DNA of 64,000 bases, taken from positions 64,001 through 128,000 of the forward strand of contig CAWDYC010000005.1 in the NCBI GenBank assembly GCA_963806535.1, given 5' to 3'. The translations under genes and the position numbers were made by a program. Below are positions 9,081-46,933 of the stretch, one piece after another. The notes below the pieces were generated by a model that was not told the DNA's origin, did not search any database, and worked only from the letters and a program-made list of their open reading frames with translations. Source of the stretch: Candidatus Bathyarchaeota archaeon (GTDB taxonomy: Archaea; Thermoproteota; Bathyarchaeia; Bathyarchaeales; Bathycorpusculaceae). Every line of letters starts with the position of its first letter. Position 1 is the stretch's first letter.

Positions 9081-9213
9081 CCTTATTTTCTCAGGTTTGC
9101 GCAGGTGTACGTGCTTGTGCTTCCTTTTACGTGCTTGTACATTGGTTTGCTTCTGTGTACGCAGCCTGCAAAGAATTCAAACCCTGAAACAAAAAAGCAA
9201 ACCAAAACACAAA
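9081..9213 (+). repeat. Dispersed intergenic element, copy A (7 x 10-bp units ending TKTRC, then core)
   Basis: tcaggtttgc|gcaggtgtac|gtgcttgtgc|ttccttttac|gtgcttgtac|attggtttgc|ttctgtgtac then gcagccTGCAA-N25-GCAAaccAAAACACAAA. Confidence 0.75.
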
Positions 9214-9259
9214 CAACAAAATTTGGTCGATTAATCTGAAGTGTTTTTTTTTATCCAAC

Positions 9260-40830: not shown

Positions 40831-42720
40831 ATGAAAGTGTTAGTTACTGGTGGTTTAGGTTTTATCGGAAGCAACTTCTGCAGGTACATGCTTTCTGAGA
40901 ATCCTGATTACGAATTGATAAATGTTGACAAAATAGGGATAGGCGCTAACCCAGCGAATCTTCACGATATTGAAAATGACAAACGTTATACTTTCATTAA
41001 AGGTGACATTTGCAATCCGCAGCTTATGAATAGGCTGATTCATCAAGTGGATGCTGTTGTAAACATTGCAGCGGAGACTCATGTAGACAGAAGCATTGCT
41101 GATCCCTACGTGTTTTTGCAGAATAACACGCTTGGTACTTTTACGATTTTAGAAGCTATACGCAAACATAATCATAAGGCTAAGCTTTTGCAGGTTTCAA
41201 CTGACGAAGTTTACGGTGAAGCACTTGAAGGTTCATTCACCGAGAATACTCCGCCTAAACCGTCTAATCCTTACTCAGCTTCAAAAGCCGCCGCCGACAT
41301 GTTTGTTTTATCTTACCATAAAACTTTTGGCTTAAACGTGTCTATTACCCGATGCACCAACAATTTTGGTCCTTACCAGTTGCCAGAAAAACTTATCCCA
41401 AAAACCATTATCCGAGCGCTTAGAGATCTTCCGATTCCAATCTATGGATCTGGACAAAACATTCGCGATTGGATTTACGTTCAAGATCACTGCGAAGCAA
41501 TCGCTACGGTTCTCAAAAAAGGAAACGCTGGAGAAATTTACAATGTTTCAGCTGGAAACGAAATTCCCAACATTGAAATCGCAAAAAAAATCATTGCATT
41601 GCTGCATAAACCTGAGAGTTTGATTACTTTTGTGGAAGATCGGCCTGGGCATGATACAAGGTACAGTTTGGATTCTTCGAAAATAAGGTCATCTTTGGGT
41701 TGGCAGACAAAGTGCAGTTTTGAGAAATCTTTAGAGTCAACTGTTCAATGGTATCTTGACAATGAACATTGGTGGACGCCGTTTGCTACGGAAGTAATTC
41801 TTCATCCAACACCTTGGAAACTTGGCGGTATCTCATTGAAGCTTTTAATCACTGGCGCCAGCGGTCTTTACGGCTCAAAGCTGGCTGCGCTTGCTGTCGA
41901 AAAGAATTTTGAGGTTTATTCCTGTGATGTGCAAGAATTGCCCGTTTGCGGTAACTTCGTTAAATTTGACGTTTCAAATAAAGAATTGGTTAATGAAGCG
42001 TTTAAGCGGGTTAAACCCGACGTTGTAGTTCACGCTGCAACTCTGACTGATGTGGATAAATGTGAGCTCAACAAGGAGCTTGCTTGGAAAATAAATGTTG
42101 AAGGAACAAAAAACATTGTTGAAGCAGCCAAAAACACAGGGTCTTTTCTAATTTATATTTCAACAGATTATGTTTTCAACGGCGAAAAAGGCAACTACAA
42201 GGAAACAGATGAACCCGCCCCGATTAATTATTACGGATTAACTAAGCTCAAAGCTGAAGAAATTGTGAAAACGCAGGCAGAATATTTTATTGCGCGGCCA
42301 AGCGTTATTTACGGTTCAACTCCTGCGGCTGGAAAAGTCAACTTTGCTCTTTGGCTAATTGAAACGCTCCGAAAAGGAGAACATGTGAAGATCATTACTG
42401 ATCAATGGAATACGCCGACGTTGAACACTAATTTGGCTGAGATGACTCTTGAAGTTGTTGAACGCAGATTGACCGGAACATTTCATCTTTGTGGTGCCAC
42501 ACGGGTTAGCCGATTCGAATTTGCAGAATTAATCGCTGAAACTTTCGGTTTAGATAAGAGCTTGATTGATCCAGTTTTGTCTTCACAGTTTACTTGGCCC
42601 GCTAAACGCCCTATGGACTCATCGCTTGACACAACCAAAGCCCAGCAAACGCTGCAGCATAAGCCCCTTGAGATGGATGAAGCGTTGAAACAGTTGAAGT
42701 TTGAGCTTTCAACAGTTTGA
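40831..42720 (+). CDS. dTDP-glucose 4,6-dehydratase (RmlB) read in frame with dTDP-4-dehydrorhamnose reductase (RmlD, TTG at about 41836); fusion or indel artefact
   Basis: RmlB: AAETHVDRS, VSTDEVYG, PYSASKAA, RCTNNFGP, DRPGHD. RmlD: ITGASGLYG, TDVDKCE, ISTDYVFNG, YYGLTKL, RPMDSSLD. Confidence 0.9.
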   Translation: MKVLVTGGLGFIGSNFCRYMLSENPDYELINVDKIGIGANPANLHDIENDKRYTFIKGDICNPQLMNRLIHQVDAVVNIAAETHVDRSIADPYVFLQNNTLGTFTILEAIRKHNHKAKLLQVSTDEVYGEALEGSFTENTPPKPSNPYSASKAAADMFVLSYHKTFGLNVSITRCTNNFGPYQLPEKLIPKTIIRALRDLPIPIYGSGQNIRDWIYVQDHCEAIATVLKKGNAGEIYNVSAGNEIPNIEIAKKIIALLHKPESLITFVEDRPGHDTRYSLDSSKIRSSLGWQTKCSFEKSLESTVQWYLDNEHWWTPFATEVILHPTPWKLGGISLKLLITGASGLYGSKLAALAVEKNFEVYSCDVQELPVCGNFVKFDVSNKELVNEAFKRVKPDVVVHAATLTDVDKCELNKELAWKINVEGTKNIVEAAKNTGSFLIYISTDYVFNGEKGNYKETDEPAPINYYGLTKLKAEEIVKTQAEYFIARPSVIYGSTPAAGKVNFALWLIETLRKGEHVKIITDQWNTPTLNTNLAEMTLEVVERRLTGTFHLCGATRVSRFEFAELIAETFGLDKSLIDPVLSSQFTWPAKRPMDSSLDTTKAQQTLQHKPLEMDEALKQLKFELSTV

Positions 42721-42746: not shown

Positions 42747-43295
42747 TTAAGGATTCATTGCGCCGCAATGAGGGCAATTGTCAAGCTTTTTATCATAAGT
42801 GAATTTGCAGTAATGACAACGTACCTTTGTAACCTCAGTAATCTCTTTTGTGACAGGTTCTTCTTTTGCTTTCAAACAAACTCGTAAATTGAATAGCTCG
42901 TTTGCAAAATCAGTCAGATAATCTGAATGATCAAAAAGGACTGTTTGAGTTTTTTCTAGACCATCATCAAATTCTATAACAAAAATATTGTCTTTCGATG
43001 TAATGCCTGTTGGTGCTAATGCTCGTTTAATTTTGCTTACAGGAATTTCCAGTATGAATTCAGCCGATCTAAAAACAACTTTGTTTTGAGGATGGGAATA
43101 TAACGATAAATTACCATTAATTTGATGAGTAAATAGAGGGTGTCCGCTTAAATATCTGGCGTCAATTTCTAAGATTAGTTCTTTAACGTGCTCTTTATCT
43201 GAAATATGCTCTTTTTCAAGATGCTGGAACATTCTGTCTTCCCCTTTGAACAGTTTTCCACATTTGGGGCAATAGACTTCTAAACCGTTTTTCAT
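42747..43295 (-). CDS. Hypothetical protein with N-terminal C2H2 Zn finger and C-terminal Zn ribbon
   Basis: CPKCGKLF...HLEKEH; CHYC...CPHCG. Confidence 0.7.
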   Translation of the reverse strand: MKNGLEVYCPKCGKLFKGEDRMFQHLEKEHISDKEHVKELILEIDARYLSGHPLFTHQINGNLSLYSHPQNKVVFRSAEFILEIPVSKIKRALAPTGITSKDNIFVIEFDDGLEKTQTVLFDHSDYLTDFANELFNLRVCLKAKEEPVTKEITEVTKVRCHYCKFTYDKKLDNCPHCGAMNP

Positions 43296-43430: not shown

Positions 43431-43560
43431 ATTGTCTAAGATTGTCTATTTTTGTCTAATAATGTCTAAAAATGAACCTACTTGCAAATGATTTGAGATT
43501 CAAATCAAAACAGCAACTTAAAACACAAAGAACAAAAATATCCCCCAAAAAACCGTCAAT
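43431..43560 (+). repeat. Dispersed intergenic element, copy B (4 x 10-bp TGTCTA units, then core)
   Basis: attgtctaag|attgtctatt|tttgtctaat|aatgtctaaa ... ctactTGCAA-N25-GCAActtAAAACACAAA...ccgtcaat. Confidence 0.8.
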
Positions 43561-46026: not shown

Positions 46027-46509
46027 ATGAGTAAAGAAGTCGTAGAAGAACAAAAGAAAGCTGAAGTCGAAGAAGAATTACCAGATTTAACTGAAGAAGA
46101 ACCTGCAGTTGAAGCAACTGAAGAGGTAGCTGCTACTACTGAAGAAGTTGAAGAGCAACCAGAAGAAGCAGTGGAAGCAAAAGTTACTAAGAAAAAGAAG
46201 CCTGAAGAAGAAATTGTTGAAGAACGAACTTACACTGTTCCTCTTTCAAGAGCTTTAGTTAGACCGCCTAAGAAGCGTGCTCCACGTGCTATGCAATTGC
46301 TAAAACTTTTCATTACAAAACATATGAAATTGGAAATGAAGGTTTCTGAAGAAGAGGAAGAAGAAGAATTGCCTCAACTTATTATCAGTCAGGAAGTTAA
46401 CGAGAAAATCTGGGATAGAGGCATAGAGAAGCCGCCGAGAAAGATTCGGGTTCGTGCAGCAAAAGATAAAGACGGCAACGTAACGGTTTATCTCGCTGAA
46501 GCCCAATAA
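46027..46509 (+). CDS. rpl31e: 50S ribosomal protein L31e with acidic N-terminal extension
   Basis: ERTYTVPL, KRAPRA, VNEKIWDRGIEKPPRKIRV. Confidence 0.93.
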   Translation: MSKEVVEEQKKAEVEEELPDLTEEEPAVEATEEVAATTEEVEEQPEEAVEAKVTKKKKPEEEIVEERTYTVPLSRALVRPPKKRAPRAMQLLKLFITKHMKLEMKVSEEEEEEELPQLIISQEVNEKIWDRGIEKPPRKIRVRAAKDKDGNVTVYLAEAQ

Positions 46510-46560
46510 TCTCTTCTTCAATTTTGTTTTACTTATTTCTTATTTAGTTTTGAGCGACTT

Positions 46561-46678
46561 TTTTGACGAATTTTGACGTTTCTTGACGGTTTTTGACGCA
46601 ACCTGCAACTGAAACAAACTGCAAACACAAAAAGCAACTTAAAACACAAAGAAAAACCCTACCAAGAAATCCGTCAAT
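46561..46678 (+). repeat. Dispersed intergenic element, copy C (4 x 10-bp TTGACG units, then core)
   Basis: ttttgacgaa|ttttgacgtt|tcttgacggt|ttttgacgca accTGCAA-N25-GCAActtAAAACACAAA...ccgtcaat. Confidence 0.82.
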
Positions 46679-46700
46679 AACCTTCGAGACACAATAGATC

Positions 46701-46807
46701 ACCTTATTTCTTCCTTTTTCTTCCAGATTTTTCCGTTTTCTTGCATTTAAAGACGCAACCTGCAAACAAATTGGACCCTAAATCAAAAAAACAACTTGAA
46801 ACACAAA
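46701..46807 (+). repeat. Dispersed intergenic element, copy D (10-bp TTSC units, then core), tandem to copy C
   Basis: ttcctttttc|ttccagattt|ttccgttttc|ttgcatttaa agacgcaaccTGCAA-N25-ACAActtGAAACACAAA. Confidence 0.78.
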
Positions 46808-46933
46808 CAACAAAAACCCAGCCAAAAAATAATTTGAAAAATTCTTGTTTCATTGAAAAAGACCGCAATCTAAAAAAAGGAGTATGCATGTGACTTCGCC
46901 ATTAACGTTTATCATCATCAGGAGAAATAATTC

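Follow-up and report, generated by a model that had tools for sequence, protein, structure and literature searches.

Small non-coding DNA elements with 10-bp-phased arrays and a fixed-geometry core in intergenic regions of one genus of Bathyarchaeia

Described repeats and phased sites compared with the elements

Bacterial interspersed intergenic repeats include REP/BIME and REPINs with their RAYT enzymes (for REPIN populations, see PMC8049555). REPs are palindromic hairpins which alternate in orientation within clusters and are associated with a Y1 (RAYT) gene present once per genome. The elements reported here, which were found in a 64,000-nt stretch of a Candidatus Bathyarchaeota genome (contig CAWDYC010000005.1, positions 64,001 to 128,000; hereafter the window), resemble them in being short, non-coding, strictly intergenic and clustered units with tens to hundreds of copies, and in being lineage-specific, divided into sub-families and located at points of rearrangement. 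Unlike REPs, they form no hairpin (folding z-scores between -2.25 and +0.64), their clusters are only head-to-tail, and the sole Y1 genes belong to IS200 copies with unrelated ends; a RAYT gene flanked by the repeats was not found. Size, copy number, insertion polymorphism and the lack of coding capacity are reminiscent of MITEs and other non-autonomous transposons. Some transposable elements possess subterminal repeated transposase sites and asymmetric ends, as exemplified by the Tn7 ends and the subterminal hexamers of Ac/Ds, and in the elements, too, a short motif is repeated at one end and occurs just once, inverted, at the opposite one (GAC arrays versus CCGTCAA). By contrast to MITEs, neither terminal inverted repeats of normal length nor a related autonomous element were found, which speaks against a classical MITE, and the 3' module carrying the inverted motif occurs in only 31 of 99 copies.

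Accessory-arm sites are known from Tn3 res, cer/psi, the arm-type sites of lambda attP and the attC arrays of integrons. What the elements appear to share with them is a core or crossover site that has putative phased protein-binding repeats on one of its sides; further likenesses are direct-repeat arrays between one or few accessory genes and breakpoints at a conserved core. The differences are that the elements have no linked recombinase and that strand exchange at their first conserved box is putative. The attC sites of integrons are imperfect palindromes, whereas hairpin-folding inverted repeats are missing in the elements, which does not agree with an integron attC array. MraZ boxes, like other operators built from phased direct repeats, are recognized by ring-shaped oligomers and are spaced by 10 bp. 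They form a series of direct repeats, according to PMC8475190, and the elements likewise contain short direct repeats, with roughly one unit for each turn of the helix. A genome has a single set of MraZ boxes, located in front of mraZ, while the arrays of the elements number about 100, are attached to a conserved core and are not bound to one gene. The Borg repeats of Methanoperedens are perfect, of many unit lengths, derived from local sequence and also present inside genes, and they have no shared core (PMC9879509). They are similar to the elements in being archaeal, intergenic, fast-evolving and A-biased, with locus-specific units in variable number. Unlike Borg repeats, the units described here are imperfect (agreement 0.68-0.93), always 10 bp long and joined to the same 67-nt core. 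As 104 of 137 TRF records of period 10, 20 or 30 adjoin a match to this shared core, tandem repeats of the Borg type were rejected. Finally, PMC3575422 deals with putative mobile promoters and promoter reuse in prokaryotes, i.e. with similar intergenic sequences beside unrelated genes, a likeness that holds for the elements as well. Unlike mobile promoters, they are not oriented toward genes and do not contain native TATA words; neither a native-like TATA at a fixed position nor a gene-ward orientation, as expected of an archaeal core promoter (BRE-TATA), was observed.

Bathyarchaeia are abundant, uncultured archaea, whose non-coding DNA and mobile elements are, to our knowledge, still almost unexplored. 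The elements constitute an apparently undescribed family of small non-coding DNA elements with about a hundred members per genome. Rfam yielded no match at gathering score in the 64-kb window and, at E<=10, only a chance miRNA match (17.5 bits versus a threshold of 80). An origin from a virus or plasmid was rejected, as plasmid and phage collections contained no match to the elements, the 19 pattern matches in viral contigs all lacked arrays and the profile gave only one weak match there (E=0.001). No described counterpart was found in the literature searched. The opinion of an earlier sequence-only reading of the window, that the elements match no recognized class, has thus withstood these searches, in which no described repeat, promoter or RNA class combined a helically phased, class-variable array with an asymmetric core of fixed geometry.

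Geometry and copy number

The sequence-only reading had described four intergenic loci sharing TGCAA, 25 interior nucleotides and a second conserved box. This description was accurate. The strict motif TGCAA-N25-RCAANYYRAAACACAAA matched four times in the 64-kb window and in none of 100 dinucleotide-preserving shuffles. It understated the size of the family. The whole genome (2.95 Mb) contains 37 exact matches, 59 matches if a CC prefix is added and one mismatch is tolerated (reversed control pattern: 0), and 99 core copies with E<1e-3 in a search with an nhmmer profile of the 67-nt core. These 99 copies are distributed over 66 intergenic regions (48 single, 11 double, 7 triple), and each element has a size of about 120-190 bp. 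The 10-bp-phased array comes first and is followed by the A/C-rich core with its two conserved boxes. Box 1 (GCAACCTGCAA) precedes the variable 25-nt interior, while box 2 (RCAAnYYRAAACACAAAGAACAAAA) lies 3' of it. That the interior is of fixed length was corroborated by 78 of 88 matches spanning TGCAA to ACACAAA without gaps and by a sample of 110 distinct copies drawn from many genomes, 104 of which have a length of exactly 67 nt.

Arrays consist of 3-10 units of 10 bp, usually with a terminal (G/T)AC, and the unit ends are in phase with the GAC at the core start. The phasing reported for the four loci proved to be a property of the family: by autocorrelation, lag 10 was the best among lags 5-15 in 90 of 99 elements versus 101 of 1314 control intergenic segments, and 76 elements exceeded the controls' 99th percentile for 10-bp periodicity. 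In these 76 periodic arrays, the unit has C at position 10 in 74 cases and A at position 9 in 49, while position 8 is occupied by G in 35 and by T in 29. Agreement within an array amounts to 0.88-0.93 at positions 8-10 versus 0.68-0.79 at positions 1-7, and positions 1-5 have an A+T content of 71-87%. The array motif does differ between copies, as had been stated, but it is not wholly copy-specific, given the nearly constant C and the recurrence of classes (TTGAC, GTGAC, CTTAC/CTTCC/CTTGC, GGGAC/GAGAC, AGTC, CACAC, GTAC/ATAC). Array lengths range from 23 to 90 nt without quantization in 30-bp steps. With one unit per helical turn, the arrays look like phased protein-binding sites, and the good preservation of positions 8-10 is in line with this part of the original interpretation; its other part, a BRE/TATA-like core, could not be upheld as a canonical TATA is lacking.

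Arrays without cores were rejected, as a comparison of TRF records with core matches revealed essentially none in the genome; of the 33 TRF loci not adjoining a core match, about nine resemble, by their unit sequences, arrays beside degenerate cores. Stand-alone box-1 operators were rejected as well, GCAACCTGCAA being present outside elements at only six chance-like sites. With a looser box-1 pattern, a single further site was detected, a truncated element at C10:12.9 kb. Downstream of the core, CCGTCAATAAC (up to 2 mismatches) is found 18-23 nt past AAACACAAA in 31 of 99 copies versus 2 of 99 shuffled tails. This sequence is an inverted GAC copy. The ccgtcaat noticed downstream of two window copies is a real, optional 3' module. 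CTTATTT, which had been noted upstream of three arrays, is no family feature (one strand considered: 14 of 99 elements; either strand: 78 of 1111 control segments). Co-variation of an array motif with its own core or tail was seen in copies A and C. Judged by eye, it is not general because CCGTCAATAAC follows arrays of several other classes.

All four window copies (A-D) are on the forward strand. Element A has a 10-bp-phased array of the GTTTGC/GTGTAC class (9086..9160; lag-10 identity 0.55) and a 67-nt core at 9157..9223 (nhmmer C5:73158-73223, E=5e-12; pattern match 9167-9213), composed of box 1 GCAGCCTGCAA, the 25-nt interior and box 2 GCAAACCAAAACACAAA. It is a short form with the tail CAACAAAATTT and a T9 run at 9231-9239, and the whole element (136-140 nt, from window position 9086) has at least nine other copies in genome G013 at 74-85% identity. 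In element B, an array of four TGTCTA units, identified by sequence reading (43431..43472), is followed by the 67-nt core (43473..43539; nhmmer E=3e-10; pattern match 43483-43529) and by the 3' module CCGTCAAT (43553..43560) at the fixed distance known from the 31 copies; the region upstream of rpp21 in G056 contains an orthologous TGTCTA element with three units. Element C possesses TTGACG units (46556..46599, sequence reading), a 67-nt core at 46594..46660 (nhmmer E=1e-9; pattern match 46604-46650) and the 3' module CCGTCAATAAC at 46671..46681, which an inverted-repeat scan revealed to be an inverted copy of the array unit TTGACGG. A nearly identical 34-nt array is joined to other interiors at C10:26094 and C10:16862. 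Between C and D lies a conserved linker or leader (CTTCGAGACACAATAGATCACC..., 46682..46705), which precedes CTTCC-class arrays that come after another element; it also occurs at C10:35.4 kb, C10:19.3 kb, C11:17.7 kb, C8:81.2 kb and in G013. The array of element D (46706..46754) belongs to the CTTCC/CTTGC class and ends with the unit typical of this class, ATTTAAAGAC, and the 67-nt core of D is located at 46751..46817 (nhmmer E=3e-11; pattern match 46761-46807). Outside the element, at 46861..46886, a native conserved box (GACCGCAATCTAAAAAAAGGAGTATG) upstream of aIF6 was recognized by aligning 21 orthologous spacers, and also metagenome loci, by eye. It is kept in relatives with and without elements.

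Genomic placement and variation between genomes

Clusters are strictly head-to-tail, mixed orientation being found in none of 18 multi-element spacers. Among 65 typed element-bearing spacers, 40 are tandem, 15 divergent and 10 convergent, proportions which are like those of the whole genome (732/333/236). In tandem spacers, 23 elements are co-oriented with the genes and 17 point against them (p=0.43). Neighboring clusters tend to have the same orientation (15 switches versus 28.4 expected, P=0.00035). Replication-strand polarity was rejected, as orientation does not follow GC/AT skew within +/-20 kb (r=0.01 and 0.12), and with the local gene-strand bias there is a weak link (r=0.21).

Judging from sequence comparisons, the copies are mosaics with apparent exchange at box 1. 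Identity of the arrays and identity of the interiors are hardly correlated (3486 pairs compared, r=0.12). Among 87 pairs with near-identical interiors, 44 have unrelated arrays, and an identical 60-nt array is present at C6:184658 and C11:17869 together with different interiors. An 800-bp segment duplicated at C4:413.3 kb and C5:365.2 kb (96.8% identity) starts inside the array of one element and ends just past box 1 of another. Synteny was inspected in about 32 kb of C10 and at three window loci; on C10, several synteny blocks common to five relatives end at elements. One element is interrupted by an IS200 copy, and this element copy may thus be dispensable.

Within the genus, 101 genomes were compared; 70 contain the family, with a minimum of one match and a maximum of at least 51, while 31 are without it, and it is absent from all 135 genomes examined from 75 other genera of the class. 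Among 80 listed matches to named MAGs carrying the element, 73 bear Bathyarchaeota or Bathyarchaeia in their titles and the other seven are bacterial. Number, class and orientation of the elements vary between species at orthologous intergenic regions, and the comparison of the L31e-aIF6 and rpp21 upstream regions proposed earlier indeed revealed differences in presence and absence among relatives. The L31e-aIF6 spacer holds the two forward elements C and D (TTGACG, CTTCC) in G000 and is element-free, with a length of 208-245 bp, in seven relatives. In G013, whose aIF6 is 95% identical, there are two forward elements with arrays and interiors different from those of G000; G056 has two reversed, G021 two forward and G045 one reversed element, and a 96%-identical metagenome relative carries a single reversed copy of the AGTC class. 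Upstream of rpp21, no element is present in G004 and G053, one in G000 and two each in G013, G056 and G016. Another example is an orthologous spacer with two elements in G000 versus five in G013. Across species the conserved boxes are kept while the interior drifts, evolving faster than the flanking genes. No target-site duplication was seen by eye beside the copies, and the intergenic DNA of the closest available relatives was too divergent for the alignment of exact empty sites. In fragmented relatives, several matches are located within a few hundred bases of contig ends.

Candidate partner enzymes, proposed mechanism and rival explanations

As the sequence-only reading had remarked, no transposase or cas gene accompanies the copies, and clustering of 267 flanking proteins (from 3375 ORFs of at least 70 aa) did not disclose a protein family enriched beside elements. 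A reverse transcriptase (RVT_1, PF00078) was absent from the five genomes scanned, three of them element-rich, and a SINE-like retroposon with a tandem-repeat tail was consequently rejected. The sole Y1 transposases found (PF01797) belong to three identical IS200 copies of 552 bp in G000. IS200 is present in the three element-rich genomes tested and was not found in G001 and G008, although these two also carry a few elements; as a partner it was rejected since its hairpin ends are unrelated to the elements. Tyrosine recombinases (PF00589) occur in all five genomes including G001 and G008 (3 and 8 model matches), so that a correlation was rejected, and none of the matches is placed beside an element cluster. 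Within the four window copies, an inverted-repeat scan detected no internal dyad. As regards terminal inverted repeats, it yielded nothing but a 7-bp inversion of the GAC box (in copy C, TTGACGG in the array and CCGTCAA) and composition-driven T-rich/A-rich pairs. An autonomous element with the same ends was not found; the only repeated coding element detected is IS200, one DDE_Tnp_1 gene on C10 being left out of account. A composite on G013:C17 with inverted element pairs was rejected, as no transposase-like ORF lies between them. Iteron- or parC-like sites, one of the original suggestions, do not agree with about 99 copies in 66 spacers and with the lack of rep/par domains in 64 neighboring proteins scanned.

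The reading that suits the data best is that the elements are non-autonomous DNA, either mobile or recombining, whose phased arm would bind protein. The alternative of a non-autonomous mobile element, already listed in the sequence-only reading, fits the comparative data best, and we give an about even chance to genus-restricted, non-coding, non-autonomous repeats which proliferate, recombine and are subject to turnover between the genes of these archaea. The array would be a set of binding sites along which an oligomerizing protein of defined sequence specificity lines up on a single helical face, starting from the core. By analogy to res, cer and attP arms, Tn7 ends and phased boxes of the MraZ type, it may serve as an accessory arm in recombination or transposition, with box 1 as the putative point of strand exchange. 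New copies could land beside residents by Campbell-type recombination, either site-specific or simply homologous, which would result in direct-repeat clusters and swapped combinations of arrays and interiors. Effects on neighboring genes, if any, would be secondary. On the other hand, ordinary homologous recombination or unequal crossing-over among selected functional elements could yield mosaics and clusters as well, and the persistence of the boxes despite a drifting interior could mean a host function. Moreover, the coherent orientation of neighboring clusters (P=0.00035) is not predicted by purely random insertion, and the searches made revealed neither an enzyme nor a duplicated target site, nor were inverted termini of the usual length detected. 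Rather unlikely, in our estimation, is a more specific form of the proposal, namely that the elements are sites of an undescribed archaeal recombination system, in which an oligomer polymerizing on the (G/T)AC array, with one subunit for each helical turn, would subject exchange at GCAACCTGCAA to orientation control, and circles with one element and one or few accessory genes would be excised and re-inserted beside residents. If true, this would be a platform for gene-cassette shuffling, functionally analogous to integron attC/res sites with another site architecture. The copies, which number about 100 in a genome and are present in many species of a single genus, mark the variable spacers as well as several breaks of synteny. 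Should the arrays be read by a protein, the system would lend itself to the study of how archaeal proteins recognize DNA cooperatively and, perhaps, of how recombination is controlled in archaea; purely selfish elements would still be a strain-typing marker, an explanation for assembly breaks and a new case of spread of an element devoid of TIRs.

A regulatory role was considered in the form of a portable cis-regulatory cassette, comprising an activating or operator array, a weak TATA in the A/T-rich last unit or in RAAACACAAA and an unstructured A/C-rich leader, or of an insulator whose T-rich array terminates and whose core re-initiates transcription. It is conceivable since box 2 (GCAAC-CTAAAACACAAAG) resembles the native aIF6 upstream box CCGCAATCTAAAAAAAGG, promoter-word scores are slightly elevated (+0.3 to +0.7, at -9 to -4) at the last array unit, many copies are situated 60-130 nt upstream of a co-oriented start codon and the T9 run follows element A on the same strand; dispersed promoter reuse is, moreover, already described (PMC3575422). 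However, TTAAATA, TATATAT and similar classical words are over-represented (log2 2-2.9) in the genome's native promoters, while the element has no canonical TATA word, nothing sharp at RAAACACAAA and, in about 40% of copies (estimated by eye), CCCAAAAC at the supposed TATA position. As 10 of 65 typed spacers are convergent, 17 of 40 tandem-spacer elements oppose the genes, the spacer types mirror the genomic background, the native aIF6 and rpp21 upstream boxes persist between element and gene, and 31 of 101 congeners do without the family, the promoter reading is weak and the cassette improbable. Independence of gene orientation is expected, and observed, for architectural or chromatin DNA, in which a 10-bp alternation of A/T tracts and 5-mers containing G/C would bend the DNA intrinsically or strongly position archaeal histones or other nucleoid proteins, organizing or insulating domains. 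The period of exactly 10 bp in 90 of 99 copies, the A+T-rich positions 1-5 (71-87%) along with the almost invariable C at position 10, the two histone-fold proteins encoded in the genome and the regional coherence of element orientation are compatible with such a role. It would, though, leave the asymmetric conserved 67-nt core and the 3' module unexplained; specific motif positions are better kept than the A/T tracts, array lengths (23-90 nt) show no 30-bp steps, orientation is independent of GC/AT skew (r=0.01, 0.12), and the family turns over fast and is absent from 31 of 101 congeners. We consider this role improbable, too.

The elements could also be genes of small non-coding RNAs or processed units of a longer transcript, with the A/C-rich or G/U-rich core as a protein-binding or antisense module and the array as a multivalent protein sponge. 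Their independence of neighboring genes, the T9 run behind element A and up to five head-to-tail units per cluster, similar to polycistronic sRNA clusters, would be consistent with this. We deem it very unlikely, since the folding of four copies on two strands gave no stable structure (z = -0.59, 0.15, 0.64, -2.25, -0.28, -0.81, -0.33, -1.29) and hence no support for the small-RNA alternative raised in the sequence-only reading, Rfam contains no match apart from the chance miRNA, a conserved promoter upstream of the arrays was not found, and the interior evolves faster than the flanking genes. The least probable explanation is that the elements are dispersed operators of oligomeric regulators of the AbrB/SpoVT type (MraZ-like or antitoxin-like) which read phased direct repeats. 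It derives some plausibility from MraZ, which binds several direct-repeat boxes in a row according to PMC8475190, and from the 21 PF04014 domains of G000, four of which are within about 700 bp of an element versus about 0.7 expected (a rough estimate). Yet elements and AbrB-type genes may simply co-occur in accessory regions, and 17 of the 21 genes have no element nearby in this genome, the one compared. The four neighboring domains, identified by comparing coordinates by hand, are located at C4:418.8 kb, C6:93.7 kb, C7:357.9 kb and C10:13.6 kb, and their geometry is inconsistent, the gene-proximal part being the array at C10:13.6 kb and the core at C7:357.9 kb.

Copy number and anatomy of the elements

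Re-reading confirmed the sequence-only description of four intergenic loci (9081-9213, 43431-43560, 46561-46678 and 46701-46807). The motif TGCAA-N25-RCAANYYRAAACACAAA occurs four times in the window, on the + strand in every case, and in none of 100 dinucleotide-preserving shuffles of it. A genome-wide search of the source assembly G000 (2.95 Mb in 12 contigs, the window being C5:64001-128000) revealed further copies: the strict motif matched 37 times, the motif preceded by CC, at up to one mismatch, 59 times, compared to zero for the reversed control pattern, and a core profile trained on the strict copies 99 times (nhmmer, E<1e-3). According to a crude ORF map, the 99 copies are distributed over 66 intergenic regions; eight copies overlap an ORF (124-215 aa). 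In seven cases the ORF, of 124-144 aa, covers the repeats themselves, and we infer it to be spurious; the eighth copy is a weak match (E=7e-5) overlapping a 215-aa ORF at its 3' end.

The anatomy was read on the element strand from an alignment of all copies on the core. The core comprises 67 nt with the consensus nGACGCAACCTGCAAACAAnTCAAACCCTAAAnCAAAAAAGCAACCCAAAACACAAAGAACAAAAnT (A 54%, C 22%, G 10%, T 14%). Its fixed geometry, proposed from the window copies, was also found beyond them, as 78/88 full-span matches in the genome are gapless and 104 of 110 distinct copies sampled across many genomes are exactly 67 nt long. An optional 3' module, CCGTCAATAAC with up to two mismatches, follows 18-23 nt after AAACACAAA in 31/99 copies, compared to 2/99 shuffled tails. 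The CTTATTT sequence reported upstream of the array is not family-wide, being present in 14/99 copies only.

A period-10 array of 2 to 9.4 units (median 5) adjoins 56/99 cores according to TRF. The 10-bp phasing was recovered by autocorrelation over lags 5-15 as well: the best lag was 10 in 90/99 elements versus 101/1314 control intergenic segments, and 76/99 elements exceeded the controls' 99th percentile. Among the genome's tandem repeats, those with period 10 are the most frequent (80/489 TRF records). Of the period-10/20/30 records, 104/137 adjoin a core match, and about nine of the remaining 33 loci resemble arrays beside degenerate cores, judged from their unit sequences. The array is therefore no free-standing feature. 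The claim that its motif differs per copy needs correction: several classes recur (TTGAC, GTGAC, CTTAC/CTTCC/CTTGC, GGGAC/GAGAC, AGTC, CACAC, GTAC/ATAC, GTTTGC), and unit positions 8-10 are constrained across 76 periodic arrays, with C at position 10 in 74, A at position 9 in 49, and G or T at position 8 in 35 and 29, respectively. All three keep the register of the GAC opening the core and show a within-array agreement of 0.88-0.93 versus 0.68-0.79 at positions 1-7; positions 1-5 contain 71-87% A+T.

Distribution, orthologous spacers and mosaics

Named MAGs with the motif were titled Bathyarchaeota or Bathyarchaeia in 73/80 cases among the matches listed. Scans with a covariance model of the core, built from sequence alone, detected the family in 70/101 genomes of the same genus, with one to at least 51 copies each, and in 0/135 genomes from 75 other genera of the class. 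The orthologous L31e-aIF6 and rpp21 spacers, singled out for comparison by the sequence-only reading, proved polymorphic for element presence and number. The L31e-aIF6 spacer measures 208-245 bp without elements in seven relatives and harbors two forward elements in G000. Two forward elements are also present in the relative G013 (95% aIF6 identity), with arrays and interiors unlike those of G000; among other relatives, G056 has two reversed, G021 two forward and G045 one reversed element. In metagenome contigs the spacer ranges from 120 to 1469 bp (both genes found in 17 of the 24 closest loci examined), and core matches occur upstream of aIF6 in 7/24 loci, in either orientation. Upstream of rpp21, no element was detected in G004 and G053, one in G000 and two each in G013, G056 and G016. 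One further orthologous spacer contains two elements in G000 versus five head-to-tail in G013. Sub-families including the array are common to different species, and the element at ~9086-9223 is a full-length match to at least nine G013 copies.

The L31e-aIF6 spacer of many relatives also contains a conserved, structured-looking non-coding segment (GGCGGATTTAGCC ... GCAGCCAGACCCGC; extracted loci L205:700-860, L206:80-230, L208:1150-1290, L011, L014, L218 and L227), followed by a conserved hairpin-like TGTTGTCACAAATTGGAACAACA. The segment was not found at this spacer of the window and matched no Rfam family at gathering score.

Array identity shows almost no correlation with that of the interior (r=0.12 across 3486 pairs drawn from 84 elements). 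The copies at C6:184658 and C11:17869 have an identical 60-nt array and different interiors, and among 87 pairs whose interiors are near-identical, the arrays are unrelated in 44. The exchange point is thus at box 1 or close by. A segment of 800 bp, 96.8% identical at C4:413.3 kb and C5:365.2 kb, carries a small zinc-ribbon ORF besides three elements; one of its ends falls within an element's array, the other immediately past box 1 of a different element. This composite repeat is located at C4:413.3-414.1 kb, C5:365.2-366.0 kb, C11:6.5-7.1 kb and C8:170.9-171.4 kb (partial); its ORF of ~63 aa has two CPxCG motifs and the C-terminal end ...LYWGESDRDSK, and presumably resembles LysW-type carrier proteins. 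On C10, 19 core matches in 13 clusters lie at 9-76 kb along with accessory genes, e.g. PIN/MazE, helicase and ClpB. Blocks of C10 common to five relatives map to scattered places, and several of them end at elements. In four relatives, the two genes flanking the element at ~9086-9223 are split between contigs, or only one of them is present.

Mixed orientation was observed in none of 18 spacers holding two or three elements. Neighbouring clusters tend to be co-oriented (15 switches versus 28.4 expected, P=0.00035, 20,000 shuffles), including 11/11 pairs less than 5 kb apart and 30/45 pairs further apart. Long one-orientation runs are present on C5, C6, C10 and C11, e.g. nine '+' followed by four '-' clusters on C10 and 6/6 '+' on C6. 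Neither GC nor AT skew tracks cluster polarity.

Possible nature of the elements

The observations fit non-autonomous DNA that spreads and recombines in intergenic regions, a reading with about an even chance of being right. The array would form a phased set of sites bound by an oligomerising protein, with nucleation at the core, box 1 would be the exchange site, and Campbell-type recombination would bring new units in beside resident ones. Clusters of direct repeats and swapped modules would follow from this. The same mosaics would, however, be expected if functional elements underwent ordinary homologous recombination. A regulatory cassette is unlikely. Element-bearing spacers are tandem in 40, divergent in 15 and convergent in 10 cases, compared to 732, 333 and 236 in the genome as a whole, counting spacers of 150 bp or more, and in tandem spacers 23 elements are co-oriented with the genes and 17 opposed (p=0.43). 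Classical TATA words are enriched in native upstream regions of G000; in the element, promoter words show only a weak rise at the last array unit. Moreover, the native conserved box upstream of aIF6 and rpp21 is retained between element and gene. The near-random orientation, the weak TATA-word signal and the retained native boxes thus weaken the BRE/TATA reading.

Architectural or histone-positioning DNA, for which two histone-fold genes in G000 speak, has a similarly small probability. Small-RNA genes are improbable, since no folded RNA was apparent (z-scores -2.25 to +0.64 over eight folds, four copies on both strands) and the window gave no Rfam match at gathering thresholds and a single 17.5-bit chance match at E<=10. 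Operators of the AbrB type are about as improbable.

The spreading elements proposed here behave like REP/BIME-REPIN repeats and MITEs but differ in architecture and in having no partner enzyme. A classical MITE or REP was rejected, as neither terminal inverted repeats nor dyads are present apart from composition-driven pairing and a TTGACGG/CCGTCAA inversion. No enzyme for the elements, target duplication or circle was found, reverse transcriptase is absent from the five genomes examined, and the viral and plasmid collections searched gave no support for a viral or plasmid origin. The elements may work like accessory-arm recombination sites and Tn7-like asymmetric ends. MraZ-type phased boxes (PMC8475190), mobile promoters (PMC3575422) and Borg tandem repeats (PMC9879509) are among the closest known kinds; the latter, described there as perfect, locus-unique and coreless, differ from the elements, which have a common core. 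A full-text literature search, with most subscription journals and supplements outside its reach, retrieved no description of such repeats in Bathyarchaeia.

Genes and repeats near the elements

No partner gene family emerged among the neighbours of the C10 hotspot or from clustering of 267 flanking proteins. By hand comparison of coordinates, 4/21 AbrB/MazE-type domains lie within ~700 bp of an element (C10:13.5-13.8 kb, C7:357.8 kb, C6:93.7 kb, C4:418.8 kb). A Y1 transposase was rejected as partner: the matches belong to an unrelated 552-bp IS200-type element with a Y1_Tnp gene and its own hairpin ends, present in three copies of 99.6-100% identity (C3:355.8-356.4 kb, C4:112.5-113.0 kb, C8:17.8-18.4 kb). 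The copy at C4:113 kb sits inside an array-core element and interrupts it.

Within the window, a 629-aa ORF (40831-42720, +) comprises a dTDP-glucose/GDP-mannose 4,6-dehydratase-type domain fused to an RmlD substrate-binding domain. Between this RmlB/RmlD fusion gene and the element upstream of rpp21 lies a 182-aa ORF (42747-43295, -) whose zinc-ribbon match is weak and falls short of the Pfam cut-off. That place is without a gene in four relatives, and the ORF is a lineage-specific insertion adjoining the element. The L31e ORF (46027-46509, +) is listed with 160 aa; its Pfam match is confined to residues 67-146, and the alignment with relatives begins at residue 67, the true start being probably downstream of the listed one. 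A ~260-bp sequence at C10:32273-32531 (L202:12273-12531), which contains no core match, matches dispersed sites in G056, G013 and G016 and may represent a second repeat family.
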